Shown here: piece after piece, positions 2-42,652 of the stretch | Layout of the letters: every line of letters starts with the position of its first letter | Position numbering within the stretch: position 1 is the stretch's first letter | NCBI GenBank assembly: GCA_041488275.1 | Contig: JBGPOY010000002.1 | Span: forward strand, 80,872-144,871 | Origin: Candidatus Nanoarchaeia archaeon | GTDB lineage: Archaea > Nanobdellota > Nanobdellia > Woesearchaeales > ARS49 | Length of the DNA stretch: 64,000 nucleotides | Direction: 5' to 3' | Notes under the pieces: model-generated | Databases searched by the model: none | What the model was told of the DNA's origin: nothing | What the model saw: the letters and a program-made list of their open reading frames with translations, nothing else | Program-made: the position numbers and the translations under genes

Positions 2-388
2 GCGCTTTCCCAGAAAACCATCGACGCCTACCTGAAGCGCAGGCAGGGAAGCATTTTGAAATTCCTGCACGCCAAGCACGTCGGCATCATCGTGTCGAGC
101 AAGCCCGGGCAGTTCAACTTCAAGCGCGCCTTGGAGCTGAAAAAGCGCACGGACAAAAAGTACTACGTCTTCGTTTCCGAAACACTCAACTTCGCCGAAA
201 TGGAAAACTTCCCGTTCATCGACTGCTGGGTGAATACGGCGTGTCCGCGCATCGCGGACGAGAAAGCGGGCATCGTCAACATCAACGACCTGGTCGAAGA
301 CAAGGTCATCACGTTCTCAAAAATCGAAGGCGGCTACGACATCCCGATTTGGATGAGCAAGAAAGGAATGAAGAAGTCCGACAGTTAG
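2..388 (+). CDS. dph2: Diphthamide biosynthesis protein Dph2, C-terminal part (5' truncated by the window edge)
   Basis: Frame is open from the window start. GIIVSSKPGQ and CWVNTACPRI match the conserved C-terminal motifs of the Dph1/Dph2 family. Confidence 0.85.
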   Translation, partial: ALSQKTIDAYLKRRQGSILKFLHAKHVGIIVSSKPGQFNFKRALELKKRTDKKYYVFVSETLNFAEMENFPFIDCWVNTACPRIADEKAGIVNINDLVEDKVITFSKIEGGYDIPIWMSKKGMKKSDS

Positions 389-942
389 GGAACCTTGACT
401 TGCGTCCCCTGATAAATGCCGTTTGCCGCGGCGAATCCGGCGTTGACTTCCACGACATATTGCGCGGGCTTCAGCGACGGATACACGGCGCACGGGTCTT
501 CCTTGCACGGCGGAACGCTGCCCTTGACTTCATTCACGATTAAATCGCTGCCGATAAAAATCATGTCGAGCGGAATCTTGGTGTCTTTCATCCAGAACGT
601 TCTTTGCGACGCACTGTCAAATACGAACAGCATTCCTGACGTTGCGGGAAGCGTGGTGCGGTTCATAAGTCCCTGCGTGCGCAGTTCGTTGGTGTCCGCG
701 ACTTCGACGCTGATGACGGTGTTTGCTCCCTGCGTGAGGAACGTGACTTTCGGACCGCTGCATCCGGCGAGAATCAGCAGAAGAAACAAGATGATGCCGT
801 GCTTGAGAACGCCTCGCGCTCGGCCCGTCACGCGTCCTTGTTTTCCGTGCCCGTGCAGTATGGTCGTGCGCTCGCGACGGAGAAGTGCTGAGTCAACGCC
901 GTTCTTGCTGCCTCGCGCTCCCAGTGGCGTTCTCAAGCTCAT
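385..942 (-). CDS. DUF192 family protein, predicted lipoprotein (true start may be GTG at 831)
   Basis: ISVEVADTNELRTQGLMNR...GMLFVF...FWMKDTKIPLDMIFI...YVVEVNAG is typical of DUF192. Lipobox LILAG|C follows a hydrophobic stretch. ATG at 942 overlaps the sppA stop (ATGA). Confidence 0.85.
   Translation of the reverse strand: MSLRTPLGARGSKNGVDSALLRRERTTILHGHGKQGRVTGRARGVLKHGIILFLLLILAGCSGPKVTFLTQGANTVISVEVADTNELRTQGLMNRTTLPATSGMLFVFDSASQRTFWMKDTKIPLDMIFIGSDLIVNEVKGSVPPCKEDPCAVYPSLKPAQYVVEVNAGFAAANGIYQGTQVKVP
801..938. repeat. 138-bp segment bounded by a perfect 13-bp inverted repeat, with an internal 11-bp direct repeat
   Basis: GCTTGAGAACGCC (801-813) and GGCGTTCTCAAGC (926-938) are exact reverse complements. 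GCCTCGCGCTC occurs at 811-821 and 910-920. Confidence 0.6.
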
Positions 943-1892
943 GTCGTGAACTGAATGTTGTTCTCAACTTTCGGCATCGCGATGCCGGTGCCAATGCCCC
1001 TGCCGAGCGCGAACGACGCTTCCTTCATCACGCCGGAAAGACTTTGGAAGAAGCCGAGCGGTTTTTGGAATTCGACGGGTTCGGCGGTGATGTTGAGCGA
1101 GTCCTCGATGTACGCGAGCGCGTCGTCTTGGTTGCCGATTTTGTCAATCAGACCCATGTCGAGCGCTTCCGAGCCGAGGTAGACCCAGCCGGTCGCGATT
1201 TTGCGGACCTTGTCTTCGGGCAGTCCGCGGTTTTGCGCGACGGACTGGATGAACATCGTGTGAATTTTGTCGAGCTGGTCGCGGAACATTTTTTCTTCCT
1301 GCGGCGTGAGCGGTTTGTACGGGCTGCCGGCGTCCTTGAACTGGCCTGCCGTGAGGGATTCGTACGTCGCGTTGTAGCGGTTCAGGGTTCCCGCGAAATT
1401 GATGTAGCTCGCGAGCACGCCGATGCTGCCGACTTCGCTCATCCTGTTCGCGAAAATCTTGTCTGCCGCGGACGCGACCCAGTAGGCGCCGGACGCGCCG
1501 AGCTCGTGAATGACTGCGATAGTGGGCTTGTTCATTTTCAGGATTTCGTTTGCCATTTCTTCGCTCGCGACGGGCGTGCCGCCGGGGCTTTCGATGTCGA
1601 GAATCACCGCTTTGATGTTGGCGTCGGAGTCTGCTTCGCGCAGCCAGCCGATGACTTCTTTGCTTGAGACGCCCTGCTCGCCGAGAATGCCTGAACTTCC
1701 GTCGGGAGTGATGACGCCGTGAATCGGGATGATTGCAACGTTGCCGTTGTGCAAAGGCGTCGTGCTGAACGCGCTGACGACGCCGAAGAGCAGGAATCCG
1801 ACAAACGCAATCGAGAGCAGGCCTGAAATGATGCCGACAATCGTGAGGATGGAGCGCAGAACTGACGGACGTTCGCTCTCACCTTTTTTCAT
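939..1892 (-). CDS. sppA: Signal peptide peptidase SppA (S49 family), short archaeal type with N-terminal TM anchor
   Basis: Start MKKGES at 1892. Motifs VAIIPIHGVI, LDIESPGG, GASGAYWVASAAD, VGSIGV and GLIDKIG. Confidence 0.93.
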   Translation of the reverse strand: MKKGESERPSVLRSILTIVGIISGLLSIAFVGFLLFGVVSAFSTTPLHNGNVAIIPIHGVITPDGSSGILGEQGVSSKEVIGWLREADSDANIKAVILDIESPGGTPVASEEMANEILKMNKPTIAVIHELGASGAYWVASAADKIFANRMSEVGSIGVLASYINFAGTLNRYNATYESLTAGQFKDAGSPYKPLTPQEEKMFRDQLDKIHTMFIQSVAQNRGLPEDKVRKIATGWVYLGSEALDMGLIDKIGNQDDALAYIEDSLNITAEPVEFQKPLGFFQSLSGVMKEASFALGRGIGTGIAMPKVENNIQFTT

Positions 1893-3326: not shown

Positions 3327-3733
3327 TTTTTCCTTTATTGCTCGCGTTCGACGAAGAAGACCCGTTTCTCGAAGGCATTTGCAGCGTTTTCAACCGGCAG
3401 TATTCGAACGCCCGTCTCGAGTACGTGAAGACGAATGAGGGCGTGCGTGACCGATTCCGAAAAGAGCAGTATCGCGTCTTGTTCTACGACATCGGGCTCG
3501 ACAAAGACACGCATTATGGCTTTACCCAAGAGTTCAAGGAAGCGAATCCCGGAGTCTATCTCATCGGGTCAAGCATCGGCACGAGCATCTATCTTTATCG
3601 CGAAGTGCCTGAAGGTATTTTTCACGACCTCATGACGCTGAACGGGCTTATCGGTTTGCACCGGAGCGACACAACGCTGAGAACCGTGCTCGAGAGGGCG
3701 GAATTGAAGCTCGAACGGATTATTTCTCCTTAA
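3323..3733 (+). CDS. Stand-alone receiver (CheY-like) domain protein, atypical
   Basis: GTGA overlap with the previous stop. LLLAFDEED (beta1 acidic pocket), VLFYDIGL (phosphoacceptor-like Asp) and NPGVYLIGSS follow receiver-domain spacing. Confidence 0.55.
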   Translation: MIFPLLLAFDEEDPFLEGICSVFNRQYSNARLEYVKTNEGVRDRFRKEQYRVLFYDIGLDKDTHYGFTQEFKEANPGVYLIGSSIGTSIYLYREVPEGIFHDLMTLNGLIGLHRSDTTLRTVLERAELKLERIISP

Positions 3734-4160
3734 ACGACATCCAAATCAGCGCCACAATTCCTATCGTCAATGCGGAATCCGCGACGTTGAACGCGGGGAA
3801 GAAGCTGAAGTGGAGGAAGTCGGTCACACTCTGGAACGCGAGCCGGTCAATCAGGTTTCCTGCAGCTCCTCCGAGGATGAGCGCGGACGACCACGTCGTG
3901 TGGTGGTCTTCCAGGATTTTCTCGAGCGACGCGACGATGATGACGATGGCCGCCAACGCAACAAGCATGAAGATGAAATTCTGTCCTTGCAAAATGCCGA
4001 ACCCCGCGCCGGAGTTTTGGATGTGCGTGAACTCAAACACGCCGGGAATGACGGACACGGTTTTTCCGACTGAGAGCATGCGCGCGAACCATTTCGTGAG
4101 CTGGTCGAGAATAACGACGCCGACGGCGGTGCCCCAGAAGAGCGCGTGGCGGTTTACCAT
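3720..4160 (-). CDS. lspA: Lipoprotein signal peptidase (signal peptidase II, A8 family)
   Basis: All LspA motifs are present: LDQLTK, NSGAGFG, GAAGNLIDR, VTDF, FNVADS (both catalytic Asp), with 4 TM segments. Confidence 0.93.
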   Translation of the reverse strand: MVNRHALFWGTAVGVVILDQLTKWFARMLSVGKTVSVIPGVFEFTHIQNSGAGFGILQGQNFIFMLVALAAIVIIVASLEKILEDHHTTWSSALILGGAAGNLIDRLAFQSVTDFLHFSFFPAFNVADSALTIGIVALIWMSFKEK

Positions 4161-4444
4161 CGGACGCGCGGCATTTCCTTATTTTCCTGCAGCGTGCGCT
4201 CCAAGTGGTCAAGCCGTTGGACGATGTTGTCCAGCTGCGCCTTGAGCACGTCGAGTTTTGCGCCGATAAGCTCTAAGTCCTTTTCGCTCGTGCGCTGCGT
4301 GAGCGAAGACATATGCTGGAAGTTCGGGTCTTGTGACGGTCCGAGCGGCTCCATCGGTTGCAGTGAAGGAGTCGGCGTCGGTTCGAACTGCATCGGCGGC
4401 AGTTCCTGCTCTTCGTGCTTCCAGAACTTGAACTTTTCGAGCAT
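4154..4444 (-). CDS. Hypothetical protein, Pro-rich N-terminal half and coiled-coil C-terminal half
   Basis: Heptad pattern in KDLELIGAKLDVLKAQLDNIVQRLDHLERTL. Overlaps its neighbours by a few bases. Confidence 0.65.
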   Translation of the reverse strand: MLEKFKFWKHEEQELPPMQFEPTPTPSLQPMEPLGPSQDPNFQHMSSLTQRTSEKDLELIGAKLDVLKAQLDNIVQRLDHLERTLQENKEMPRVRW

Positions 4445-5154
4445 CAGCTTGCTCCGTCGACGTTGATGACGTAGCGGAGGACGGGATAGGGAAGGATGCG
4501 GATGGTGCGCGTCGTGATGCTCCCAGGGTACGCTCGGGCTGTTCCGGCGTTGATGCTCTTGACCAGCGCGTGCGCTTGCAGGAAATCGTTGACCATCGCC
4601 GCGAGCAAGAGTCCCTTGAACGCGTCGGCGGTCGTGTCGGGCAACTGGATTTCCTGCCCGATGGGAACGTGCGCGGCGGTGCGGACTTCCTTTGCGTAGT
4701 CCATGCGCGGGTCGGCTTCCGCCATCAATTCAAGCGCGCGCTTCGAGCTGAGATTGAGCCCGTCAATGTGGACGAACGGGATGGAATCGAACGCTCCGGG
4801 GTTGAGGATGAGCATGACATTGTTGCCGTCCAACGCCGTCTTGAAGTCGCCGGTGGAGTACGCTGCACGCAGTGCGCTCGTGTCGTTGATGACGCCGGGC
4901 ATCGGCGAGTTGTCGTGGACAAACGCGCCGAGCATCGTGCCCTTGTCGTCCAGCACGAAAAGCTTGGTGCCGTAGGCGAGCTGCTGTTCGAACTGCTGGG
5001 AGTCGTACGACAGCGCGAGGCTGCCGATGGCGAGCGCGAGTCCGAGAATCGTGAGGACGGTGTTCGCGATGCGGAAGACCTTGTAGTATGCCAGCGCCGA
5101 GAGTACAATCGAGATGGCGAAGAAAATGCCTGTTAGGACGTACGGGTTGACCAT
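4444..5154 (-). CDS. Hypothetical membrane-anchored protein (2 N-terminal TM)
   Basis: Two hydrophobic helices followed by a soluble domain. Coupled to the 4154-4444 ORF. Confidence 0.65.
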   Translation of the reverse strand: MVNPYVLTGIFFAISIVLSALAYYKVFRIANTVLTILGLALAIGSLALSYDSQQFEQQLAYGTKLFVLDDKGTMLGAFVHDNSPMPGVINDTSALRAAYSTGDFKTALDGNNVMLILNPGAFDSIPFVHIDGLNLSSKRALELMAEADPRMDYAKEVRTAAHVPIGQEIQLPDTTADAFKGLLLAAMVNDFLQAHALVKSINAGTARAYPGSITTRTIRILPYPVLRYVINVDGAS

Positions 5155-6416: not shown

Positions 6417-6797
6417 CTAAATCAAAATGGCGCAGATGTGCCCTTCCTGACCCGGACGGTTCGTGATGCGCGCCTTGCCCTTGTCCGTTTCGATGACGGT
6501 TCCTTTCGTGAGGACGTTGCGTCGCACATAGTGGCGGTTCGCGGGGTTGCCGGTCACGATTTTGATGGTGGCCTTGACGTACTTCTTGGTCTTGGCGTCG
6601 AACAGGTTGCAGACGTTCGTGGAAGTCTGGTGCACTTTGGTGCCGCCGCCCTTGGTGCGCATCGTCTCGAGTTCACGGGCTGCAATCTTCGGGAGCGTCG
6701 GGTGATGGCCCAGTTCGTAGAGCTTCTTGCCGCGGTGCTCCTTCTTTCTGCCGCCGGAAGGCGTGCTGTCCTTGATTGCGCGTTGGATAACGACCAT
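6417..6797 (-). CDS. rps8e: 30S ribosomal protein S8e
   Basis: TPSGGRKK..RGKKLYELG, RTKGGGTK, NPANRHYVRRNVLTKGTVIET..GKARITNRPGQEG. Confidence 0.97.
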   Translation of the reverse strand: MVVIQRAIKDSTPSGGRKKEHRGKKLYELGHHPTLPKIAARELETMRTKGGGTKVHQTSTNVCNLFDAKTKKYVKATIKIVTGNPANRHYVRRNVLTKGTVIETDKGKARITNRPGQEGHICAILI

Positions 6798-6806
6798 GGT
6801 GAGACC

Positions 6807-7208
6807 TCACTTCGCCGCCGCGGGAGCGGCAGCCTTTTCTTCTTTCGGAGGCGCGAGCGGAGCTGCGCCTTCCTTCAACACTTTGAGATTGACTTGCGTG
6901 ATTTTCGGGTGAATCGTGTTGCCGCAGACGGTCTTGCGGTGCTTGATGCCGTTGGCGGTCTTCTTGAGACCGACGCCCTTGACGGCGAGAATTCGCTTTC
7001 TTTGGAAACCGGGGACGTCCCAGCGCATCGGGAAGCCGCAATAGTCGCTGCCGCCCGCAACTTCAAACTCGTAGCCGGGAAAACCAAAGTGGTCGCCCTT
7101 GACATGGTCCTTGATTTTCTTGCCTAAGAGTGCTTTGAATTCCGTGTCCGGAATTTCCTTCTGCACGCTGGTGCCGTTCTTCAGTCCAAAAATCAACTTT
7201 GCTGGCAT
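6807..7208 (-). CDS. rps6e: 30S ribosomal protein S6e
   Basis: LLGKKIKD..GYEFEVAGGSDYCGFPMRWDVPG...RKTVCGNTI..ITQVNLKV. Confidence 0.96.
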   Translation of the reverse strand: MPAKLIFGLKNGTSVQKEIPDTEFKALLGKKIKDHVKGDHFGFPGYEFEVAGGSDYCGFPMRWDVPGFQRKRILAVKGVGLKKTANGIKHRKTVCGNTIHPKITQVNLKVLKEGAAPLAPPKEEKAAAPAAAK

Positions 7209-7288
7209 GGTAGTCCCCCGAGCCGCATTGTTGCAGCGACTCAGCTTAGATACTCAGAATTCCCTTCAGGGGGTTTATAAATGTTCTG

Positions 7289-7639
7289 CTAATTGACGAG
7301 CTTCAGGCTTCCTGTAACGGCGTCGATGCGCTTCTCGTCGTGCGGGCCGATGGCCATGCATGTAATCGTGCCGGGGTCGACGTGCGTGTGTCCTGCATCC
7401 GTCACGACCGCGGCGATGAGTCCGGATTTTCTTGCTTTCTGTTCGTAGTCGAGCAGTTCGCGCAAGTCGGCGACTTTCAGAACTGATTTTTTCATTCCCT
7501 GCTGGCGCCAAATCATCACGTCCTCGGCGTCGGAGAGCGTCACCGCATCGACAGCAGCGTGGGCGACTTGCGCGGACATCTTGCCTTTGGAGAGCTTGAG
7601 GTCGTCGCGCACCAGAATGACCTGCTTGTAGTCTGCCAT
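7289..7639 (-). CDS. pth2: Peptidyl-tRNA hydrolase Pth2 (archaeal/eukaryotic type)
   Basis: YKQVILVRDDLKLSKGKMSAQVAHAAV, DAGHT and TCMAIGP. Confidence 0.96.
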   Translation of the reverse strand: MADYKQVILVRDDLKLSKGKMSAQVAHAAVDAVTLSDAEDVMIWRQQGMKKSVLKVADLRELLDYEQKARKSGLIAAVVTDAGHTHVDPGTITCMAIGPHDEKRIDAVTGSLKLVN

Positions 7640-7641
7640 GC

Positions 7642-8682
7642 TTACGGAGTGGGAGTTGCGGGTTTTAAAGGTTGCTTCAGGTGATGGTCAATCGCGGCGA
7701 CGAGTTCTTTCACGCCGGTTTCTTTTTCTGCGGAGACGAGCATCAGGTTTTGGGTGTGTTCGCTCGCCTGCTCGATTTGCTGCGTCGTGGCGGCGTCGGC
7801 TTTGTTCACGACGACAATGACGGGCACTTGCAATGTTTTCGCGACTTCCTTGAGCAGGTTTTTCTGGGCGTCCAAGGGGTAGCCGCAGAATTCGGTCGGG
7901 TCCAGCACGAAGAGGACGAGTTTCGCGAGATACTTCAGTGCGAGCGCGGCTTGCTTTTCGATGTTGTTGCGTTTGACGATGGGGCGGTCGAGGATGCCAG
8001 GAGTATCGACGAACTGCCACTTGGTCGTGCCGTGCGGGCGGTAGCCGAGCATCATTTGTTTGGTGGTGAAGGGATAGTCCGCGATTTCGGGAGCGCTGCC
8101 CGTGAGCGCGCGCAGGAGCGTGGACTTGCCGACGTTCGGGTAGCCCGCGATGACGATGGTGGGAATGGATGTTTTCAGCGTGGGCAGGACTTTCAGTGCT
8201 TTACGCGCGTCGTCGAGAATGACGAAGTCATTTTTGAGTTGCTTGACGATGGAGGAGATTCTGCCGTAGAACGACCGCTTGTGCCGCAGGAGAGCCGATT
8301 CGTCTGCGCTGTTGCGGAGCTTCTGGTTGTACTCGCGGAAAATCGTGTCGATGCGCTCGACGCCCCAGTTGATGCCGCCCAAGCTCTGCTTGACCTGTCC
8401 GACGTCGACGACGCACTTGGCGAGTTCGCGGTAGAACGGGTCGACGCGGTCCATGCTCGGGTATTGCGTGAGGATGAGCATGAAGTGGCGGTTCAAGGCG
8501 TTGCGGACGGCGTTGATGGAGTCGAGTTCCTTGCGTTGGAGGCGTTGGAACGAGTTGCCTTTCAGCGTTTTCATCGTCTCGGCGGCGTGTTCCTTTGCCT
8601 GATGGAACGCGATGTCGAGGTACGTCTGCGCGGTTTCGACCTTGCCGAGCTTTCCGAAGTTCATATCCGTCTGGAGCACCAT
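7642..8682 (-). CDS. NOG1 family GTP-binding protein
   Basis: N-terminal helical NOG1 domain (DPFYREL). G1 AGYPNVGKST, switch YPFTTK, G3 DTPGILDR, G4 NKAD. Start at 8682 or 8664. Confidence 0.92.
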   Translation of the reverse strand: MVLQTDMNFGKLGKVETAQTYLDIAFHQAKEHAAETMKTLKGNSFQRLQRKELDSINAVRNALNRHFMLILTQYPSMDRVDPFYRELAKCVVDVGQVKQSLGGINWGVERIDTIFREYNQKLRNSADESALLRHKRSFYGRISSIVKQLKNDFVILDDARKALKVLPTLKTSIPTIVIAGYPNVGKSTLLRALTGSAPEIADYPFTTKQMMLGYRPHGTTKWQFVDTPGILDRPIVKRNNIEKQAALALKYLAKLVLFVLDPTEFCGYPLDAQKNLLKEVAKTLQVPVIVVVNKADAATTQQIEQASEHTQNLMLVSAEKETGVKELVAAIDHHLKQPLKPATPTP

Positions 8683-14606: not shown

Positions 14607-15356
14607 ATGGCGAAGGAAGAGAATATGCAACCGATGCAGCACCAGATGATGGGCTACGACCGTGCTATCACGATGTTCAGCCCCGACGGACGTTTGCTGC
14701 AAGTGGAATACGCAAAGAAGACCGTTCGCCAAGGTTCAACGGCCATCGGCATGGTTTGCACGGACGGAGTCATCCTCGTCGCGGACAAAAGAATCGTTGA
14801 CAAATTGATTATCCCTGAATCAGTAGAAAAGATTTTCCAGATTGACGACCACATCGCGGCGACTGCGTCAGGAATCCTGAGCGACGCACGAGTTCTGATA
14901 GAACGCGCCCAAGTCAAGGCGCAGCAGCACCGCGTCACGTACGACACGAGCATTGACACAAGCACCGTCGTCAAGGACGTCGCTTCCTTGTGCCAAATCT
15001 GCACGCAGTCCGGCGGTCTCAGACCGTTCGGCGTTTCGTTAATCATCGCCGGCATCGACTCGGACGGTCCGAAACTGTTCGAGACCGACCCGACCGGAAT
15101 TTTCTTCCAGTTCAAGGCAACCGTCATCGGCGAGGGCGAGCCAGAAATCGAGGAAATCCTCGGCAAGGAATACCACGAGCGCCTCACGATGCAGGACGGT
15201 CTTTCCTTAGCGCTGAACGCGTTGAGCAAAGTCCTTGACAAGAACTTCAACGTCGAGCGCGTCGACGCCGCGTTCATCTCGAACAAGGAAAAGAAATTCA
15301 TGAAGTTCAAGCGCAGCGACTTGGAAAAGGCGCTGAAAGAAATGAAGAAGAAATAA
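14607..15356 (+). CDS. psmA: Proteasome subunit alpha
   Basis: GYDRAITMFSPDGRLLQVEYAKKTV, SGILSDARVL and RPFGVSLIIAG. Confidence 0.98.
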   Translation: MAKEENMQPMQHQMMGYDRAITMFSPDGRLLQVEYAKKTVRQGSTAIGMVCTDGVILVADKRIVDKLIIPESVEKIFQIDDHIAATASGILSDARVLIERAQVKAQQHRVTYDTSIDTSTVVKDVASLCQICTQSGGLRPFGVSLIIAGIDSDGPKLFETDPTGIFFQFKATVIGEGEPEIEEILGKEYHERLTMQDGLSLALNALSKVLDKNFNVERVDAAFISNKEKKFMKFKRSDLEKALKEMKKK

Positions 15357-15379
15357 TCACGGTAACCCAAGGTGAACTT

Positions 15380-16102
15380 ATGGAAACAGTGAACATGAAA
15401 GACAAAGACGTTGTCGTCCCCGGCGACATCGTCGCTACGGGAATGGGCTTCCTTCCCAGCAAGGGCACGTACCGCGACGGCGACAGAATCATCGCCAGTC
15501 AGCTCGGACTCTTGAGTATTGAGGGCAAAGTTTTGAAAGTCGTCCCGCTCGCGGGCAACTACAGCCCGAAAATCGGCGACCGCGTCATCGCCACCGTCAA
15601 TGACGTATTATTCTCAGGCTGGCGTGTCGACCTCTACGGTCCGTACAGCGCAGTCCTCGGCGTCAAGGACGCCACGAACGAATTCATCGGACGAGGAGCA
15701 AACCTTGCCGAGATTTTCGCGCTCAGCGACGTCATCGTGTGCAAAATCGTGAACGTCACGAGCCAGAAGCTCATTGACGTTTCGCTGAGAGGCCCGGGCT
15801 TGCGCAAGCTCAAGGGCGGCAGAATCCTCCAAGTCAACGCGATGAAAGTTCCGCGAATCATCGGCAAAGACGGCTCGATGATTAGCATGATCAAGCAGGC
15901 AACGGGCGTCAACCTCGTCGTCGGCATGAACGGCATCGTCTGGATGGACGGCACGCCGGAAGGAGAAGTCCTCGCCGTGGAAACGATTAAGAAAATCCAG
16001 TACGAGGCGCACCTCCCCGGATTGACGAATACCATCAAGGAATTCCTCGAAAAGCGCACCGGACTCAAGGTTGAGCCGCGCGCGATGCAGGAAGGTGAAT
16101 AA
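15380..16102 (+). CDS. rrp4: Exosome complex RNA-binding protein Rrp4
   Basis: VVVPGD N-terminal domain, S1 (YSPKIGDRVIA) and KH (KVPRIIGKDGSM..GMNGIVW). Confidence 0.96.
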   Translation: METVNMKDKDVVVPGDIVATGMGFLPSKGTYRDGDRIIASQLGLLSIEGKVLKVVPLAGNYSPKIGDRVIATVNDVLFSGWRVDLYGPYSAVLGVKDATNEFIGRGANLAEIFALSDVIVCKIVNVTSQKLIDVSLRGPGLRKLKGGRILQVNAMKVPRIIGKDGSMISMIKQATGVNLVVGMNGIVWMDGTPEGEVLAVETIKKIQYEAHLPGLTNTIKEFLEKRTGLKVEPRAMQEGE

Positions 16103-16104
16103 TC

Positions 16105-16821
16105 ATGGCATACGTAAAACGTTTTGACGGGCGCAAATTCGACGAAACTCGCCCTATCGTCGCCAAGGTCGGAGTCATCCCGCGAGCTGACGGCAGTGCA
16201 ATGTTCCAAATCGGCAACACGACCGCGTACGCGGCCGTGTACGGTCCGAGAAACTTGCACCCCAAGTTCATGCAGGACCCGAAAACCGGCATCCTGCGCT
16301 GCGAGTACAACATGCTTCCCTTCTCCGGTCACGGCGAACGCGTCCGTCCGGGCGGCGGTCGCCGAGCAAGAGAAATCGGCATGGTCACGGAAAGCGCCTT
16401 GAGACCCGTTCTCGATTTGAAAGAATACCCGAATGCGGTCGTGGACGTCTACATCGACCTTCCGCAGACGGACGCCGGAACGCGCTGCGCAGGCATCACG
16501 GCAGCCGCGATGGCGCTCGCCGACGCGGGCATCGAGATGAAAGAGCTCGTCGCCGCAGTCGCGATCGGTAACGTTCAAGGAAGCATTGTCGCAGACTTGA
16601 CGTACGCCGAAGAGCAGAACAAGACCTCAACCGAAGGAGTGGCAGACACGCCGGTAGCGTTCCTGCCTCTCTCAGGCAAGGTCACGCTGCTCCAGATGGA
16701 CGGTCCCACCACGCGCGAACAACTCAAGAAATCGCTCCACCTCGGACGCGACGTGTGCAAAAAAATCGTCGAAATCCAGAAACAGGCGCTCCGCGCAAAG
16801 TACACAGGTGAATCCCAATGA
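16105..16821 (+). CDS. rrp41: Exosome complex exonuclease Rrp41
   Basis: RFDGRKFDETRP, ADGSA..GNT..AAVYGPR and DAGTRCAGI (RNase PH fold). Confidence 0.96.
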   Translation: MAYVKRFDGRKFDETRPIVAKVGVIPRADGSAMFQIGNTTAYAAVYGPRNLHPKFMQDPKTGILRCEYNMLPFSGHGERVRPGGGRRAREIGMVTESALRPVLDLKEYPNAVVDVYIDLPQTDAGTRCAGITAAAMALADAGIEMKELVAAVAIGNVQGSIVADLTYAEEQNKTSTEGVADTPVAFLPLSGKVTLLQMDGPTTREQLKKSLHLGRDVCKKIVEIQKQALRAKYTGESQ

Positions 16822-17597
16822 TGTCCGAACAAAAGGAACACATGCTCAAGTACTTGAGCAAAGGCATCCGGTACGACGGCAGAAAACCGCTGGACTACCG
16901 CGACGTGCACGTCGAGTACGGCGTCACGCACTCCGCCGAAGGTTCGGCAATTGTCCGCATTGGCGGAACCGAAGTCATGGCGGGCGTCAAGATATCCATC
17001 GAAAAGCCGTATCCGGACACTCCGGACAAAGGCAACCTCATGGTCAACGCCGAGCTCCGTCCGATGGCGAGCCCGAAGTTCGAAAGCGGTCCTCCTCAGG
17101 ACCAAGGCATCGAGCTCGCGCGCGTCATCGACCGCGGCATCAGAGAAAGCGAAGCCATTAACGTCCACGACCTGGTCATCAAGAAAGGAGAATTAGTGTG
17201 GAGCGTCGCCATCGACATCGTCGCCTTCAATGACGAAGGCAACCTGTTCGACGCCGCCGGACTTGCTGCGTTGGCAGCGCTGAAGGACGCGAAAATGCCG
17301 GGCAAGACCGAATTCAACAAGGCGGACTACGACAACCGTACCGAAGAAAAGCTTCCGCTGAAGCACTCGCCCGTGCCGATTACCGTCTTCAAGATGGGCA
17401 ACACCATCTTCGTGGACCCGATTTCCGAAGAGGAAGACGTCTACGACGCGCGCCTGACGGTCGCGTGCCGCGAAGACAGCACGCTCTGTGCGCTGCAAAA
17501 GGGCGGCGACGGAGCCTTGACGATTGAGGAAATCGACGAAATGGTCGGTATCGCGCTGGAGAAGTCCAAGATGCTCCGCGCAAAGCTGGGGAGGTAA
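16818..17597 (+). CDS. rrp42: Exosome complex component Rrp42
   Basis: IRYDGRKPLDYR, AEGSAIVRIGGT, FESGPP, ELARVIDRGIRES and DEGNLFDAAGLAA. Confidence 0.96.
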   Translation: MMSEQKEHMLKYLSKGIRYDGRKPLDYRDVHVEYGVTHSAEGSAIVRIGGTEVMAGVKISIEKPYPDTPDKGNLMVNAELRPMASPKFESGPPQDQGIELARVIDRGIRESEAINVHDLVIKKGELVWSVAIDIVAFNDEGNLFDAAGLAALAALKDAKMPGKTEFNKADYDNRTEEKLPLKHSPVPITVFKMGNTIFVDPISEEEDVYDARLTVACREDSTLCALQKGGDGALTIEEIDEMVGIALEKSKMLRAKLGR

Positions 17598-20406: not shown

Positions 20407-21261
20407 TTACCCCTTCGCCACTATCGTGTAGAACGCGTCGAACAGCGGCGTATCAGTAGAAAGCGAATAGAACTTGGCGTTCGTCTCCAAACACGCGTGC
20501 TTGACCATCGCGTTGTGGACTTCGAGCATGTTCAGATACTTCTTCTTCAAGTACGGACTAATGTACGTGCGTAAAATGCCGCCGCTCTCGCTGTCTTTTA
20601 GCTTCACTTCGCCCTCGACGTCCAATTCCTTCTCGGTCTTATCCAACACTTGAATCAAGCGAACGTCGTGGTTCTTGAAGCGCAAAAGAACGCTCTTAAT
20701 CTCGTTCACGTCGTACAGAAAGTCAGAAACGATGATGACGAGCGACCGCGAGCCAATCATTTTCTTATAACGCCCCAATGACTCTTCAAAATTAGTAACG
20801 CCTTTGGCGTGCTTCGCGTTCAGGTAATCAACGATGCCTGCCAGCTGTTTGCGCCCCTTGCGCGGCTTGAACAGTTCCAGTTTTTCTGCGAACGTGCTCA
20901 TCACGAAGCGCTCATTGTTCTTCATCGCCAAGTACGCGAACCCGATGCCGAGCATTGCGGCGTAGTCAGACTTCTTCACGGGGCTGCCGAAATTCATGGA
21001 AGCGGAAAAATCGGCGATGATGTGCACGGTCAGGTTGCGCTCTTCTTCGTGCTTCTTAATCACCAGTCGATCGGTGCGAGCGTAGACCTTCCAGTCAATC
21101 ATGCGGTAGTCTTCGCCCGGCGCGTAGGAAGAATAGTCCTGAAACACGAGCCCCTTGCCCAAGAACGCCGTCCTTCTCTCCCCAATATAGTTCGACGTGA
21201 GGTGCTTGTTGACAATCAGAGAAAAGCGGTCCAGGATTTTCAGGAAGCTGAGGTCAATCAT
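20407..21261 (-). CDS. DUF58 family protein (vWA-like, MoxR-associated)
   Basis: GKGLVFQDYSSYAPGEDYRMIDWKVYART..IKKHEEE, ADFSASM and IVSDFL. Confidence 0.93.
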   Translation of the reverse strand: MIDLSFLKILDRFSLIVNKHLTSNYIGERRTAFLGKGLVFQDYSSYAPGEDYRMIDWKVYARTDRLVIKKHEEERNLTVHIIADFSASMNFGSPVKKSDYAAMLGIGFAYLAMKNNERFVMSTFAEKLELFKPRKGRKQLAGIVDYLNAKHAKGVTNFEESLGRYKKMIGSRSLVIIVSDFLYDVNEIKSVLLRFKNHDVRLIQVLDKTEKELDVEGEVKLKDSESGGILRTYISPYLKKKYLNMLEVHNAMVKHACLETNAKFYSLSTDTPLFDAFYTIVAKG

Positions 21262-22196
21262 TTCAGCAATTGCTTGACGACGTCGTCCTCGGTGAGTCCC
21301 TGCCGTTCGGCTTCGAAGTTCAAGACAAGGCGGTGCCGCAAAACAGGAGCCGCAAGCGCCGTAATGTCGTCCTTGCTGACGAACTTTCGGCCTTCCAGCA
21401 ACGCTCGCGCTTTCGACGCGAGAATCAGGCCGATAGAAGCACGGGGCGACGCCCCATACTCAATAAGGTCCTTCTTTGCGCGCGTCGAGGTCACAATCTT
21501 CACTGCGTACTGCTTCAGGTCGTTCGCAATCGGCATTTGCCGCGTCAACTGCTGCAAATACAACAGGGTTTCCTTGTTCAGGATGGGCTTCAGTATCGGT
21601 TTTTTGATAATCTCGGTAAACCTGTCCACAATCTCGATTTCTTCGTCAAACGTCGGGTATTGCGCTTTCACCTTCAACAAGAATCGGTCGCTTTGCGCTT
21701 CGGGAAGAGGATACGTTCCTTCCTGTTCAATCGGGTTCTGCGTCGCAATCACGAAGAACGGTTCGTCGAGCTTGAACGTGTTGTTTCCGACCGTCACTTG
21801 CTTTTCCTGCATGGCTTCGAGCAATGCAGACTGCGTTTTCGGAGTCGCTCGGTTGATTTCGTCCGCAAGAACAACATTCGCAAAGACCGGACCGGGCTGG
21901 AACTTGAACGTGCGCTTGCCTGCCGTGCTTTCCTCAATGATGTAAGTACCAGTAATGTCGGAAGGCAGCAAGTCAGGCGTGCTTTGGATGCGGGAGAACT
22001 TCAAGTCAATCAGTTGCGCGAGCGTCTTGACGGACAGCGTCTTTGCCAGTCCCGGATAGCCCTCAAGCAGTACATGCGAGTCGCAGAACAGCCCGATGAC
22101 CATCTGGTGCAGCATTTCCTTCTGCCCCACGATGACTTTATCGATCTCGCTGAAGAGGTATTCGAACGTCTTTTTGACTTCCTCAACGCTTTTCAT
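21258..22196 (-). CDS. moxR: MoxR family AAA+ ATPase
   Basis: LLEGYPGLAKT, RIQSTPDLLPSDITG, LADEINRATPKTQSALLEAMQE and ATQNPIEQEGTYPLPEAQSDRF. Confidence 0.97.
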   Translation of the reverse strand: MKSVEEVKKTFEYLFSEIDKVIVGQKEMLHQMVIGLFCDSHVLLEGYPGLAKTLSVKTLAQLIDLKFSRIQSTPDLLPSDITGTYIIEESTAGKRTFKFQPGPVFANVVLADEINRATPKTQSALLEAMQEKQVTVGNNTFKLDEPFFVIATQNPIEQEGTYPLPEAQSDRFLLKVKAQYPTFDEEIEIVDRFTEIIKKPILKPILNKETLLYLQQLTRQMPIANDLKQYAVKIVTSTRAKKDLIEYGASPRASIGLILASKARALLEGRKFVSKDDITALAAPVLRHRLVLNFEAERQGLTEDDVVKQLLK

Positions 22197-22248
22197 AATT
22201 CACCTTTTTCGTTCCTGTTGATTCCGTTGTTTGATTTATAAACTTTGC

Positions 22249-23079
22249 CTACTTGGGGATGTTCTTGAAGTAGTTCCTGACAATGCCTTGGTATTCCTTG
22301 GGAATGTCTTCGCTGAAGGTCTTGTCCGAGCTCGCCTGAATGTCCGTAGCCGTAGGCTGGTCCGTGAATTTCTTGGAATCGGGAGGGCGAACATCGCCAA
22401 TCTTGACGCCCGAGGCTTCAGGATTAATCTCCAAGTTCAATTCGTCCGTGCCGAGCTCCACAACCGACGAATTCCCATAGAGCGACGATTCGTCAATCAA
22501 AGTAACTTCCTTCAGCAGTTTTGCCCTGCTGTCTTCCTGTTTCGACAGCTTGCCGAAGAGCGTTTGGTTGTTGTGCGCCCCAAACAGCCCGCCGGAAATA
22601 CCGGACAAACCGGCGCCGTTCAACAACGCGGTGCCGTCGATAAACTTGATGTTCAACGCAGAAACGGAGATAATCGCAAAACACAATAACGCAATCACGA
22701 CGAGCTGTCGGGTCACTTTGCCGAACCCGATAAACGCGCTCGTCTGGATGAGCTGCATCTTGCCCAAGACTTCCGTATGCAGCGCGCGCACGACTTCGTT
22801 CTCGGTCTCGACGCTGTCCGCTGCTGTTCGCAAAGCCTCGCGCAATTGCGGCACACGGTTCTCGACGTCCGCGTACCCCAACGCTTTGAGCACTTTGCGC
22901 CCGTGGAAGACGAAATAGATGAAGAACGGAATCAGCGCCCACGTCCAGGAAAGCCCGAGCAGCAGCGCGGCAAGGAGGCTGAACAGCAGGATAATCATGC
23001 TGTCCACGAGGCTGTTGAACAGCCCGATGCTGAACAGCGTGCTCCGCAGTTCCAGCAATGCCTTGCCGATGGGCTTCAT
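22249..23079 (-). CDS. Membrane protein of the MoxR operon (3 TM and acidic C-terminal region)
   Basis: Two N-terminal TM, VENRVPQLREALRTAAD, a third TM, and C-terminal IPKEYQGIVRNYF. Confidence 0.7.
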   Translation of the reverse strand: MKPIGKALLELRSTLFSIGLFNSLVDSMIILLFSLLAALLLGLSWTWALIPFFIYFVFHGRKVLKALGYADVENRVPQLREALRTAADSVETENEVVRALHTEVLGKMQLIQTSAFIGFGKVTRQLVVIALLCFAIISVSALNIKFIDGTALLNGAGLSGISGGLFGAHNNQTLFGKLSKQEDSRAKLLKEVTLIDESSLYGNSSVVELGTDELNLEINPEASGVKIGDVRPPDSKKFTDQPTATDIQASSDKTFSEDIPKEYQGIVRNYFKNIPK

Positions 23080-23585
23080 CAGCAGTTGCCCTCCGAACCG
23101 TCATCCGTGTTCTGCAGACAGGAAATGCGGTCTTTGTAGACGATGATGTCGCCGCGCAGCTTGGAGTTGTCGCTGCCCAAGGAAGCAACCTGCGAGTTCA
23201 ATGAAGAAACTTGGTTGCTCAACGACGTAATCTGCGAGTTCTTGGATGCCAATTGTCCGGTAGCGTCCGTCAATTGCGCGTTCAAGTCCGTCTTTTCCTT
23301 GGCAAGCGCGTCGCTCGTCGCCTTTGCCTCGGTGTACTTTTCGGTGAACTGGTCTTCGCGGTTTTGCTTGAGGTCCAGCTCAATCTGGGCCTTTTGCAGG
23401 ACATCCTGATAGTTCTTGGCCTGCACCGTGAGGTTGTTCAGCTCGGCGAGCTTGTCGTTGTACTGCTTGTTGATGTTGGTGAAGCGGTCCTGGAAGTAGA
23501 TGGTCGCGCCGACAAGCGACGACGCAATCAAAAAAATCAACAACAGCAAAAGCAAGTTCGCGTTTCGTGTTATGTAGCTTGTCAT
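23079..23585 (-). CDS. Single-TM coiled-coil protein of the MoxR operon
   Basis: N-terminal TM followed by about 120 aa of heptad repeats. Ends in a Cys-x9-Cys motif. Confidence 0.7.
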   Translation of the reverse strand: MTSYITRNANLLLLLLIFLIASSLVGATIYFQDRFTNINKQYNDKLAELNNLTVQAKNYQDVLQKAQIELDLKQNREDQFTEKYTEAKATSDALAKEKTDLNAQLTDATGQLASKNSQITSLSNQVSSLNSQVASLGSDNSKLRGDIIVYKDRISCLQNTDDGSEGNC

Positions 23586-25996: not shown

Positions 25997-27819
25997 ACGT
26001 CACCTCGAATCTTGACGTAGAGCAATTCGATAAAGAGGATGAGCAGCGCGGCGAACAGCAAGGGCATTTCCCAGTCGAGCGTGCGGAGCTCCCGAACGGG
26101 CTTGAGCTGGACGGTGTCGGGCGTGTCTCCGACCGTCGTGCGAGGATTGATGTCGGATTCCTGTTCGTTCAACAAATTAACGGCGACCGTGCGGTCCGAG
26201 AGCGTGTAGAGTCCTGCCCTGTCGAGGATGATGCGGTTGGTGGTCTGAGAACCGGAAGGCGTTTGGACGTCTTCGGGATGGTCAAGCAGGAGAGTGTTGC
26301 CCGTTCGGTCGTTCATTCCCGTCACGTCTTTCTGGCCGGTGGCGTACTTGATGAGTTCGTACCAGAAAATCGGGTAGTACGGCGAGAACTTGAAGTCCGA
26401 ACCCTTCTCGAGGATGCCGTACCAGATGAGCTTACCGCCGCCGGGCACGGTCGCGACGGTGATGACGGCGGTGCCGTTGCCGACGGTCGCGATGGGGACG
26501 ACGCCTGCTTGCAAATTGGTCGTGAAGTATTTCGGCAGCTTGCCGAACTCGATGTTGGTGGTGAAGCGCGTCGGCGTTTCGACGGTGATGAAGCCGTTCT
26601 CGCCCTGGCCGGTGAGCCCGAACGGAACCAGTCCTCGGTAATCGATGTTGAGCGAGTCGTCCTGCGCCGCGACGATTGCGGTCTTCGCGTTCTTCTGGAC
26701 GTTCTTGAGCATGTCGTCGTACGTTCCCGCGAGCACTTGGTTGCTGTCGACGTCGTGCACGATAACAACGTCGAAGTTGCCCTTCGCCACGACCGGAGGC
26801 TGGCTGACGGTCAAGTCCACGTTCGACCACGCCTTGAGCGCGTTGGTGAGGAACTGGCTCGGGTTGTTGGTGAGCAAAAGCACTTTGACGGGCTGGCGTT
26901 CGGGAGCGCTCGTGTACGCGGTGTTGTCGACGAGCAAATCATCGTCTTCCTCAATGTGAATCTTGGTGACTTTCGGCAGCGTCTCAAAAACGTAGGGAAC
27001 AATGCCTTTTGCGGGAATGGTGAGCGGCTTGTCGTCGCTTCCGATTTGCAGCGTGACGGTTTTTTCTTCGTCGTTGAAGTTCTTGACGTACACGGTGGTG
27101 GACTGGTCGTCGACTTTCAAATCAACGATGCCGACGTTGTGCTTGCCTGCGGTGCCGACGTTGATGTAGTTCACGACCAAGTCGCGCGACTGCAGAACGG
27201 CTTTCGCGGTGTCGGGGTCGACGCCCGTTGTGGAGATAAAGTCGCTGATGACGATGACGCGCCCTTCCTTGCCACGGAGGACTTCGCCTGCGAGGATGAT
27301 GGCGTCGCCGATGCCGCTGCCCGCATCCGTGGGGCGTAACAAGTTGAGCACGGCTTGCGCGTCGCCGCTGCCGATGTCCTGCGCGAGCAGTCTCGGGCGC
27401 TCTTCCGCGACGACGATGCTGTTGTGCGACGTGAGCGCGCCTTTCGCGGCGGAGATTGCTTTGTCGAAGCGGGTGGTCGCGCCTTCTTTGGTCTGCATGC
27501 TGGCGCTGGCGTCAATCACGATGACCGTGTTCGCCGCCGCGATGTCGTGCTGGACCTTGATAGACGGCTGGGCCGGGATGAGCAAGAGCGCAAGGAGGAT
27601 GAGCAGCTGCACAATCATCATGAAGTCGTGCACGAACATGCGGAAAAAGCTCAGGAGCTTGTTGCGTCCGGTCGCTTTCATGAAGAACATCAGGCTGGGG
27701 ATTTCCCGCATCTTCGGCTTCGGGCGGATAAGATAGAACAGGATGAGGGGCACGAGCAGGAACAGCCACCAGAGTCTGCTGGGTTCCCCTATTACGAGCG
27801 GTCCGAGTGCGAATGCCAT
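25993..27819 (-). CDS. BatA and vWA domain-containing membrane protein
   Basis: LWWLFLLVPLILFYLIRPKPKMREIPSLMFF (BatA), VIDASASMQT and ISDF (MIDAS), C-terminal TM. ATG at 27819 follows a GGTGAG SD. Confidence 0.85.
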   Translation of the reverse strand: MAFALGPLVIGEPSRLWWLFLLVPLILFYLIRPKPKMREIPSLMFFMKATGRNKLLSFFRMFVHDFMMIVQLLILLALLLIPAQPSIKVQHDIAAANTVIVIDASASMQTKEGATTRFDKAISAAKGALTSHNSIVVAEERPRLLAQDIGSGDAQAVLNLLRPTDAGSGIGDAIILAGEVLRGKEGRVIVISDFISTTGVDPDTAKAVLQSRDLVVNYINVGTAGKHNVGIVDLKVDDQSTTVYVKNFNDEEKTVTLQIGSDDKPLTIPAKGIVPYVFETLPKVTKIHIEEDDDLLVDNTAYTSAPERQPVKVLLLTNNPSQFLTNALKAWSNVDLTVSQPPVVAKGNFDVVIVHDVDSNQVLAGTYDDMLKNVQKNAKTAIVAAQDDSLNIDYRGLVPFGLTGQGENGFITVETPTRFTTNIEFGKLPKYFTTNLQAGVVPIATVGNGTAVITVATVPGGGKLIWYGILEKGSDFKFSPYYPIFWYELIKYATGQKDVTGMNDRTGNTLLLDHPEDVQTPSGSQTTNRIILDRAGLYTLSDRTVAVNLLNEQESDINPRTTVGDTPDTVQLKPVRELRTLDWEMPLLFAALLILFIELLYVKIRGDV

Positions 27820-27872
27820 GCTCACCAACTTTTCAGTATAGAAAAACGTATACTGATTCCCAGTTTATATAG

Positions 27873-38117: not shown

Positions 38118-38347
38118 TTTCGTTCCCTCAGGTAGTCGCGTTTTTCCTTGACGCGGTCTTCCAGCCATTCCAATCCGCGCGTCGTGTAGTGCAGCGTGTC
38201 CTGCGTGAGTTTCAGCCCTGTTTCGGCGGCTCGCTCGAGCGAGCTCGGCGGCTGTTTCTTTGTTTCACAGCTCGCGAGCGTGTACAGCCCCGCGACCGTG
38301 ATGCCGCCGTACACGGCAATGTTCTTGACCAGTTTGCAGATGCCCAT
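38114..38347 (-). CDS. Small membrane protein or lipoprotein
   Basis: Hydrophobic N-terminus with YTLAS|C lipobox-like motif, followed by an amphipathic helix. Confidence 0.6.
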   Translation of the reverse strand: MGICKLVKNIAVYGGITVAGLYTLASCETKKQPPSSLERAAETGLKLTQDTLHYTTRGLEWLEDRVKEKRDYLRERK

Positions 38348-42620: not shown

Positions 42621-42652
42621 ACGGGCTTCTTTCACCATATAGTTAGTGTTAG

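Follow-up and report, generated by a model that had tools for sequence, protein, structure and literature searches.

Bacterial signal peptidase II (LspA), which is inhibited by globomycin or myxovirescin, acts on prolipoproteins whose lipobox cysteine carries a diacylglyceryl group, an ester lipid derived from sn-glycerol-3-phosphate. LspA enzymes from Pseudomonas aeruginosa (5DIR, 6FMS, and 9EMZ) and Staphylococcus aureus (6RYO and 6RYP) have a fold of four helices and a beta-cradle with a pair of catalytic Asp residues, and those of Escherichia coli and P. aeruginosa consist of 164–169 residues. In archaea, the AliA/AliB system of Haloferax volcanii (arCOG02177/arCOG02178; PMC12462473) serves the same end, as it leads to the anchoring of lipobox proteins to the archaeal membrane. 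AliA and AliB catalyze lipidation and resemble Lgt marginally at best; this system has no known signal peptidase II, and AliA has been reported in some DPANN archaea (PMC12462473). According to current papers (PMC12462473, 2025; bioRxiv 10.64898/2026.03.08.710431), neither Lgt nor Lsp has an identified homologue in archaea, and the lipoprotein signal peptidase is the missing downstream component in archaea. Bacterial genes for isoprenoids, fatty acids, and G3P dehydrogenase have been reported in Woesearchaeota, for which bacterial hosts were suggested (Castelle et al. 2021, PMC8204110).

We analyzed a 64-kb stretch of DNA from an archaeon of this group (hereafter, the window), in which a gene at positions 3720–4160 on the reverse strand, lspA, encodes a lipoprotein signal peptidase (signal peptidase II) of peptidase family A8, in contrast to the lipidation enzymes of H. 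volcanii. The gene starts with ATG, and its product of 146 residues is compact compared with the bacterial enzymes. Residues 12–143 matched Pfam PF01252 (Peptidase_A8) at model positions 2–141 of 142, with an E value of 4.4e-36 and 124.6 bits (cutoff, 25), and the product scored 105.3 bits against the NCBIfam equivalog TIGR00077 lspA (cutoff, 73.95). By these curated thresholds, it belongs to the same family as the bacterial enzymes, and its identity to the solved LspA enzymes was 34–37%. In a full-length alignment with 9EMZ, 5DIR, and S. aureus 6RYO, D114 and D128 corresponded to the catalytic Asp124 and Asp143 of P. aeruginosa LspA, respectively, and D19, K23, N49, G51, N102, D105, R106, and N125 were also shared. 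The motifs in common with bacterial LspA are D/K, N-x-G, G-x-x-G-N-x-x-D-R, and F-N-x-A-D, and the alignments revealed G101, F124, and A127 as further clade-invariant positions. Both catalytic Asp residues and the other key residues were invariant in 20 relatives with identities of 55–65%.

The AlphaFold2 model of the product (pLDDT 80.6) consisted of four transmembrane helices (residues 4–27, 61–84, 86–109, and 126–145) and a beta-cradle, with strands at residues 34–49 and 112–118. Foldseek matched this model to 6RYP, 6RYO, and 5DIR with a probability of 1.00 and TM-scores of 0.81–0.83; no other fold matched, and the next entry had an E value of 1.5. A sequence-only reading of the window had claimed a complete LspA motif set with both catalytic Asp residues for this gene, and Pfam, TIGR00077, the alignment, and the fold all agree with that claim. 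The open reading frame at 3720–4160 is a canonical, intact LspA, and its product is expected to be enzymatically active.

Among the best 80 genome matches to this LspA, 51 were from Woesearchaeota/Nanoarchaeia, and orthologues of lspA were found in about 50 species genomes of this group. Known LspA enzymes are from Bacteria, whereas the host here is an archaeon, and the archaeal sequences form a separate, well-supported clade. In the LG+C20 tree, one branch (starred; 98/87) parted all archaeal LspA sequences, including that of the window, from the bacterial ones. One nominally bacterial sequence (L084) was placed on the archaeal side; it is on a contig carrying genes for the archaeal/eukaryal translation factor aIF1A and for p96, a small protein described below, and therefore we regard this contig as a mislabelled archaeal one. 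The nearest bacterial LspA sequences, with identities of 42–45%, were from Dehalococcoidia, Nitrospirota/Thermodesulfovibrionales, and Thermodesulfobacteriota, and grouped together on the opposite side of the tree. Since the bacterial sequences were picked by their similarity to the archaeal profile, the tree does not prove the donor lineage or a strictly single origin. The background assumed in the sequence-only reading, that archaea generally lack recognizable Lgt and LspA, is in line with PMC12462473, but public annotation already names Woesearchaeota genes 'signal peptidase II' and 'prolipoprotein diacylglyceryl transferase'. The genes are thus present by name in databases, and the literature searched, outside which most subscription journals lie, is silent on them, with no mention found of LspA or Lgt in Woesearchaeota/DPANN.

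The genes adjoining lspA were analyzed in the window and in related genomes. Directly upstream, p96 (4154–4444, reverse strand) encodes a small protein in which the conserved motif M-G-x-x-D-K-L-x-F-W-K-K is found at the N-terminus and a coiled coil at the C-terminus, along with a linker rich in Pro and Gln. The stop of p96 overlaps the start of lspA by 7 nt. Of the 51 archaeal loci, 43 have a p96 homologue immediately upstream of lspA, with a median gap of −7 nt and an overlap in 28 cases, and no such homologue adjoins lspA in the true bacterial loci. In the window, lspA is translationally coupled to this lineage-specific coiled-coil protein, which the bacterial loci do not have. This conserved order and the single archaeal clade in the tree argue for vertical inheritance over a recent transfer, two possibilities that an A8 family phylogeny had been expected to distinguish. 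A database search with p96 yielded 17 relatives of the same clade, all annotated as 'hypothetical' and all on LspA-bearing contigs. The next gene upstream, p236 (4444–5154, reverse strand), is the first of the overlap-coupled trio p236-p96-lspA, and its orthologues occupied the equivalent position in 12 loci. It encodes a membrane protein with two N-terminal transmembrane helices and an extracytoplasmic alpha/beta domain. The predicted model of p236 had a pLDDT of 83, and its PDB matches to LytR-CpsA-Psr-type proteins (E values of 0.04–0.12 and TM-scores of about 0.3) were unconvincing and were not taken as a match. Searches of Pfam and NCBIfam with p96, p236, p272, p136, and p154 yielded sub-threshold noise alone. 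On the other side of lspA, sppA (939–1892, reverse strand) encodes a signal peptide peptidase of family S49 with 317 residues (PF01343, E value of 2.4e-42). Enzymes of the SppA class break down signal peptides once they have been cleaved off. An SppA gene was also found about 1–3.4 kb downstream of lspA in four relatives (L007, L026, L044, and L071).

The stop of sppA overlaps a gene for one of four proteins in the window that had been claimed to contain a lipobox. With a lipobox defined as [LVI][ASTVI][GAS]C at the end of a signal peptide, all four were present as written (the arrow precedes the lipobox Cys), and the Cys was conserved in orthologues for two of them. The overlapping gene (385–942, reverse strand) encodes a DUF192 (COG1430) protein with the lipobox LLILAG↓C (PF02643, E value of 8e-32). 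When translated from the upstream ATG, its Cys is residue 61, which is too deep for a signal peptide, whereas translation from the GTG at 831, the likely true start, places the Cys at residue 24, as is normal for the signal peptide of a lipoprotein. The Cys is kept in the orthologues of L007 (LLLLAG↓C) and L072 (LALTTS↓C). The second candidate (30398–31120, reverse strand) is a DUF4382 protein (PF14321, E value of 6.6e-22) whose lipoprotein signal peptide, MKKILSIIALVVLLTA↓C, is canonical, and its residues 1–18 showed a weak match to the lipid-attachment site LPAM_1. The third candidate, a 77-residue protein with the lipobox GLYTLAS↓C, is encoded at 38114–38347 on the reverse strand by the first gene of an operon, followed by genes for a coiled-coil protein and an AAA ATPase (35747–36949), and its lipobox is kept in the orthologues of L008 (YALSS↓C) and L010 (YGLAS↓C). 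The fourth candidate (62079–63293, forward strand) is a 404-residue surface protein with the signal peptide MKTGIVALLLASMFILAG↓C and Big_9/PKD/cadherin-like repeats (Pfam Big_9, E value of 5e-18, plus PKD and Cadherin_4). In all six frames, a PROSITE-style lipobox pattern also matched about 11 shadow open reading frames and was undiscriminating alone; thus, we make no claim of enrichment from the pattern. What sets the four real proteins apart is the n-h-c architecture of their signal peptides. The DUF192, DUF4382, 77-residue, and Ig-repeat proteins are probable substrates of LspA.

No Lgt was found within the 64-kb window. In two relatives, an Lgt gene (PF01790, E value of 2.6e-74) was located on the same contig as lspA, at a distance of 4.3 kb in L011 and 3.2 kb in L091. 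When the Lgt of L011 was used as a query, the best 120 matches showed identities of 55–70% and retained every key residue of E. coli Lgt, apart from a few conservative substitutions at E243 and R246. Among these best 120 matches, those with a named source were all from Woesearchaeota/Nanoarchaeota, and most had no source name. In L089, the Lgt gene was located among genes for aEF1A, S10, Rpb6, and exosome components. A candidate for the Lgt of the source genome was sought by the amino-acid composition of a high-GC genome, and none was conspicuous in the best 120 matches to the Lgt of a low-GC relative. Compared with the bacterial Lgt-LspA(-Lnt/Lit) pathway, in which an N-terminal acylation enzyme (Lnt, Lit, or LnsAB) is optional, lipobox substrates and a canonical LspA are common to both, and the Lgt of the lineage keeps Y26, H103, R143, N146, E151, G154, Y235, R239, and E243. 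On the other hand, the 'head' insertion of E. coli Lgt is missing from the archaeal Lgt, and in four relatives, unlike in the bacterial pathway, Lgt is preceded by a polytopic membrane protein (about 260 residues) that is conserved and belongs to no known family. Canonical Lgt is thus common among Woesearchaeota, two relatives have it on one contig with lspA, and in the source genome LspA may pair with such an Lgt.

The sequence-only reading had named a misassembly or contaminant at lspA as the finding that would overturn its interpretation. This possibility deserved attention, given that LspA is otherwise a bacterial family and that some close relatives bear bacterial labels (P0004, 'Binatia', and L084, 'Parcubacteria'), but the 'bacterial'-labelled contigs carry p96 and/or aIF1A and are therefore mislabelled. 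The contig with lspA contains the exosome operon (proteasome alpha-Rrp4-Rrp41-Rrp42) and the archaeal markers Cbf5, NOG1, S6e, S8e, PTH2, and aIF1A, and lspA, which overlaps its neighboring genes, is flanked on both sides by archaeal marker genes within 1–4 kb. Downstream, aIF1A (eIF-1A family; PF01176) is encoded at 2438–2782 on the forward strand and is a conserved convergent neighbor of lspA; in most archaeal loci, it is found on the opposite strand about 0.1–2.5 kb downstream of lspA (mostly 0.6–1.8 kb). Upstream of the lspA cluster and in the same direction, NOG1 GTPase, PTH2, and ribosomal proteins S6e and S8e (Pfam) are encoded at 6417–8682 on the reverse strand. The stretch around lspA was also recovered in independent assemblies from JGI (67-kb contig) and Logan (21-kb contig). 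The GC3 of lspA was 0.77, compared with 0.68–0.84 for the neighboring genes, and its GC content was likewise equal to that of its neighbors. Because the contig is archaeal, the stretch was assembled independently, and the composition is that of the neighboring genes, lspA is neither a contaminant nor a product of misassembly. The gene order kept in 43 or more archaeal genomes likewise speaks against these artefacts and against a very recent transfer, and we give virtually no credence to contamination from a bacterium, a chimeric assembly, or such a transfer, all of which the results refute. A working LspA in a Woesearchaeota-type DPANN archaeon, acquired once from Bacteria long ago and vertically inherited since then, is in our judgment probable.

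Two other readings accept an archaeal LspA and differ in what it does. LspA might follow an AliA-type enzyme and cut prolipoproteins that carry ether-linked archaeol, instead of a diacylglyceryl group, on the Cys. The lipid groove of LspA, as seen in the 5DIR and 6RYO structures, is a general hydrophobic site, which would accommodate this hybrid route. According to PMC12462473, AliA (arCOG02177) occurs in DPANN 'with some gaps', and archaea still lack a known lipoprotein signal peptidase, but much of the lineage has a canonical Lgt with all its catalytic residues, and this gene is physically linked to lspA in two relatives. Moreover, no AliA-like gene was seen beside lspA in any locus, in a search that used no AliA model, and we consider the hybrid route unlikely. 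The LspA fold could also have been put to another use, such as the processing of non-lipoprotein membrane substrates or a role in a p96/p236 module unrelated to lipoproteins. In favor of such a use, lspA is tightly coupled to p96 and, in some genomes, to p236 in a lineage-specific manner that has no parallel in bacteria, and both proteins are of no known family. However, the residues for LspA catalysis and substrate binding are all invariant, and the co-occurrence in the lineage of lipobox proteins with a conserved Cys and canonical Lgt is most simply matched by the canonical function, which makes another use very improbable.

A vertically inherited, bacterial-derived Lgt-LspA pathway is thus the most likely reading. 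The sequence-only reading had suspected a bacterial-like pathway, and at the level of the lineage this suspicion is borne out by an Lgt that is widespread and, in two relatives, linked to lspA. In such a pathway, lipobox prolipoproteins would be exported through Sec, as in Bacteria, and canonical Lgt would attach a lipid to the lipobox Cys via a thioether bond. LspA, as a four-helix membrane aspartyl protease with D114 and D128, would then cut directly before the lipidated Cys, and the released signal peptide would be cleared by SppA, which is encoded 1.8 kb from lspA. The order of these steps and the identity of the lipid are suggested by analogy with the bacterial pathway.

We tentatively extend this reading to an order-level branch of DPANN, comprising Woesearchaeales and relatives, although we think the extension somewhat more likely to fail than to hold. 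The branch may possess, instead of AliA, a bacterial Lgt-LspA pathway that is complete and has been inherited vertically, may use sn-glycerol-3-phosphate ester lipids that are self-made or come from a bacterial partner, and may have p96 and the membrane protein of about 260 residues as accessories of LspA and Lgt, respectively. If this is true, a lipoprotein signal peptidase would have been identified in archaea for the first time, and these organisms would show how enzymes can function in nature on both sides of the archaeal/bacterial 'lipid divide'. A large archaeal lineage conserves canonical LspA as a core gene and also has conserved lipobox substrates and a canonical Lgt, and these are concrete genes for asking whether LspA and Lgt work on archaeal lipids. 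They also bear on which lipids the membranes of Woesearchaeota contain and on how a membrane-bound system for protein processing came to be fixed after its transfer between domains.

Rfam and tRNA scans of the 64-kb window gave no matches. The source archaeon, a member of the Woesearchaeota group, is small and uncultivated. A search of sequencing runs of any type with a 3.5-kb query yielded no RNA data and a single DNA run, which is probably the source sample.

The lspA gene (3720–4160, minus strand) starts with ATG and encodes a protein of 146 amino acid residues. Pfam Peptidase_A8 covered nearly the whole of this product (E = 4.4e-36; 124.6 bits, gathering score 25 bits), and the NCBIfam equivalog TIGR00077 lspA scored it at 105.3 bits, over the curated cutoff of 73.95 bits. 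A sequence search of the PDB matched LspA structures only, those of P. aeruginosa (5dir, 6fms, and 9emz; E about 1e-18) and S. aureus (6ryo and 6ryp; E = 8e-18), with alignments spanning residues 8–145. In the alignment to 9emz, N102, D105, R106, D114, N125, and D128, which include both catalytic aspartates (D114 and D128), corresponded to N112, D115, R116, D124, N140, and D143 in native P. aeruginosa numbering, respectively. Also kept were the TM1 Asp/Lys (D19 and K23) and, in the beta-cradle loop, Asn-x-Gly (N49 and G51). None of the residues named here varied when the 20 closest relatives (55–65% identity) were aligned, which indicates purifying selection on the putative active site. The AlphaFold2 model, with the 20-relative alignment as input (pLDDT 80.6, pTM 0.74), had four long helices and two beta elements, arranged along the chain as is typical of LspA. 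Significant Foldseek matches to it in the PDB were LspA chains only (probability 1.00, TM 0.81–0.83, rmsd 1.8–3.3 Å), and the first non-LspA match had an E value of 1.5. All testable criteria of sequence and structure thus place the protein in the LspA family, with predicted peptidase activity, and the intact LspA with both catalytic Asp described in the sequence-only reading agrees with the Pfam, TIGR00077, and 9emz results.

The same 64 kb encodes the proteasome alpha subunit, Rrp4, Rrp41, and Rrp42 of the archaeal exosome superoperon (14607–17597), Cbf5 with DKCLD-TruB-PUA domains (29328–30326), and the GTPase NOG1. PTH2, ribosomal proteins S6e and S8e, and aIF1A immediately surround lspA, which is the final gene of the co-directional run NOG1-PTH2-S6e-S8e-p90-p272-p236-p96-lspA. 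The stop of p96 overlaps the start of lspA by 7 nt, and p96 and p236 overlap by 1 nt. Four contigs from independent assemblies encode an identical LspA protein; two of them, a JGI contig of 67 kb and a Logan contig of 21 kb, share the gene order around lspA. The GC content (0.56) and GC3 (0.77) of lspA were inside the range of its neighbours (GC3 0.68–0.84). A misassembly or contaminant at lspA, named earlier as what would refute the LspA reading, was excluded because independent assemblies agree, the neighbours are archaeal, and the composition equals theirs. The gene is part of an archaeal genome.

The p96 family, encoded in the window at 4154–4444 (minus strand) and upstream of lspA in loci of relatives (L007–L086), comprises small proteins of 63–183 residues that matched no known family. 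They share an N-terminal motif, MG(I/L)(L/F)DKLxFWKKxDEF, followed by a Pro/Gln-rich low-complexity linker and a C-terminal coiled coil, DLELIxSKLDxIKAxLxSxxQRLxxLE, often with a terminal Trp. The N-terminus is presumably similar to the amphipathic helix with which PspA/Vipp1 proteins begin and bind membranes. The p236 gene (4444–5154, minus strand) encodes a protein with two transmembrane helices and an extracytoplasmic alpha/beta domain that was modelled with confidence. The only structures near this protein were LytR-CpsA-Psr-type enzymes, which bind polyprenyl-phosphate-linked substrates; the matches (E = 0.04–0.12, TM about 0.3) were too weak to assign p236 to that type.

The closest named database proteins were "signal peptidase II [Candidatus Woesearchaeota archaeon]" and entries from "Nanoarchaeota archaeon" and "Nanoarchaeia archaeon". 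LspA is a trait of the lineage and not of this one genome. When prokaryotic species, each represented by a single genome, were scanned with the LspA clade alignment, 563 relatives were obtained; among the best 80 of these, 51 were archaeal records (Woesearchaeota, Nanoarchaeia, Nanoarchaeota, and Nanobdellota), and many more bore the label "uncultured Methanosarcinales archaeon". The latter was read as a probable placeholder, since these sequences interleaved with Woesearchaeota-labelled ones in the tree, some being nearly identical. In the maximum likelihood tree of 82 sequences (LG+C20+F+G4, ultrafast bootstrap and SH-aLRT), a starred branch (98/87) separated all 51 archaeal LspAs and the window protein from the bacterial sequences, namely Chloroflexota, Nitrospirota, Thermodesulfobacteriota, Pseudomonadota, and E. 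coli. A single origin of the archaeal clade is likely, with the caution that the bacterial sequences had been picked for their similarity to the archaeal profile, a sampling that limits what the tree says about both the donor and the single origin. The only "bacterial" sequence on the archaeal side was that of L084 (PBQF01000005.1, "Parcubacteria group bacterium"), which, judged by its gene content, is a mislabelled archaeal contig because aIF1A and a p96 gene adjoin its lspA. Of the 51 archaeal loci, 43 had a p96 homologue immediately upstream of lspA (median gap −7 nt; overlapping genes in 28) and three had one 0.3–3 kb away, whereas in five it was undetected; none was found in the 28 true bacterial lspA loci. 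In most archaeal loci, aIF1A was downstream of lspA and convergent. This conserved gene order supports vertical inheritance in the archaeal lineage, which the sequence-only reading had set against recent transfer and with which the A8 phylogeny is consistent. A 6.6-kb contig labelled "Candidatus Binatia bacterium" (database matches P0004/P0244) also carries a p96 homologue. Its label, that of L084, and those of many "uncultured Methanosarcinales archaeon" records look wrong, given the p96-lspA pair and/or aIF1A and the nesting of the LspAs among Woesearchaeota.

The four lipoboxes proposed for candidate substrates were all present in the window sequence. Textbook lipoprotein signal peptides were found in a DUF4382 protein (MKKILSIIALVVLLTA/C), whose residues 1–18 weakly matched the Pfam lipid-attachment-site model, in an Ig/PKD/cadherin-repeat surface protein (MKTGIVALLLASMFILAG/C), and in a DUF192 protein (...KHGIILFLLLILAG/C). 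For the DUF192 gene (minus strand), an in-frame 5′ extension of about 37–46 codons (window 801–942) reaches the ATG chosen by the gene callers, which overlaps the sppA stop. Because this ATG puts the lipobox Cys at residue 61, translation more plausibly begins at the GTG at 831, which gives a normal signal peptide. The DUF192 orthologue in L007, a locus of a relative, begins MKRILLLFGLLLLAG/C. Two other genomes had DUF192 orthologues that kept the lipobox Cys, as did the orthologues of a 77-residue protein in L008 and L010; this conservation covers two proteins, the orthologues of the DUF4382 and Ig/PKD/cadherin-repeat proteins lying outside the flanks examined. Statistical enrichment is not claimed, since the lipobox pattern by itself also matches about 11 shadow ORFs in the window. 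At a distance of 1.8 kb from lspA, the gene for the signal peptide peptidase SppA (S49) is coupled by overlap to that of the DUF192 lipoprotein. Four other genomes likewise have an SppA gene downstream of lspA. The lipobox class is one of three predicted export signals used in the window, because signal-peptidase-I-type signals (e.g., ...SVPAFA/DL at 47854) and prepilin-like class III signals (MMRKGQLTIFIIIGL at 42702 and MRRGQLTIFIILGL at 50734) also occur. The class III signals belong to two large paralogous proteins (42702–44888 and 50734–52671, plus strand), which belong to a run of very large secreted proteins at 39240–59096, among them an S8 subtilase and a 2142-residue protein.

In the simplest reading, a bacterial-derived Lgt-LspA pathway would have become one of the core functions in this archaeal lineage: prolipoproteins with a lipobox would be exported and then lipidated on Cys, and LspA would cleave the lipidated prolipoprotein before Cys via the D114/D128 dyad. 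A phmmer search of the 64 kb, translated in six frames, with E. coli Lgt as the query detected no Lgt in the window. The chief alternative, which we consider improbable, is a hybrid route with AliA (arCOG02177) producing archaeol-modified proteins that LspA would then cleave. For the Lgt-LspA pathway, the evidence for Lgt in the Woesearchaeota is direct at the lineage level. A full-length Lgt (PF01790, E = 2.6e-74) is encoded 4.3 kb upstream of lspA on the Woesearchaeota MAG contig L011, 3.2 kb separate Lgt and LspA on L091 (GCA_019322485.1), where aIF1A adjoins, and Lgt lies amid aEF1A, S10, Rpb6, and exosome genes on L089. The L011 Lgt had at least 120 database matches at 55–70% identity; among the 120 listed, all named sources were Woesearchaeota or Nanoarchaeota, most matches being unnamed. 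The E. coli Lgt residues Y26, H103, R143, N146, E151, G154, Y235, and R239 were kept in all 120 matches listed and E243 in 119, and the head insertion of E. coli Lgt was missing in them.

Lgt is directly preceded in four divergent Woesearchaeota by a gene for a polytopic membrane protein of about 256–262 residues without a Pfam match (L011, 4173–4955; L089, 7416–8186; L091, 9220–9999; L093, 9197–9985). These proteins were pairwise related (phmmer E = 1e-20 to 1e-72) and may represent a lineage-specific Lgt partner. On L089, whose gene content is archaeal, a short PlsY-type glycerol-3-phosphate acyltransferase gene (6774–7232, minus strand; PF02660, 152 residues) adjoins the Lgt operon divergently, a hint that Woesearchaeota may have ester-lipid chemistry of the bacterial type. 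According to Castelle et al. 2021 (PMC8204110), MEP-pathway genes of bacterial kind occur in Woesearchaeota close to bacterial genes for fatty acids and a bacterial G3P dehydrogenase, and some of these archaea may be episymbionts of bacteria. Because of these bacterial lipid genes and the PlsY-type gene near the L089 Lgt, a phosphatidylglycerol-type donor for the lipobox Cys is plausible, the genes giving hints only.

In the literature searched, no paper connected LspA or Lgt with Woesearchaeota or DPANN; the Woesearchaeota lspA and Lgt genes are already named in public annotation. The finding contradicts the current statement that archaeal homologues of Lgt or Lsp have not been identified (PMC12462473) and supplies testable genes. 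The local detail that the window contributes is the coupling of p236, p96, and lspA, the neighbouring pair of sppA and a lipoprotein gene, and the conserved lipoboxes. Elsewhere in the window, a cluster at 20407–27828 (minus strand) encoding a MoxR AAA ATPase, DUF58 and DUF7502 proteins, and two large VWA/BatA-like membrane proteins (DUF7406/7407/7408) resembles the bacterial Bat aerotolerance operon.
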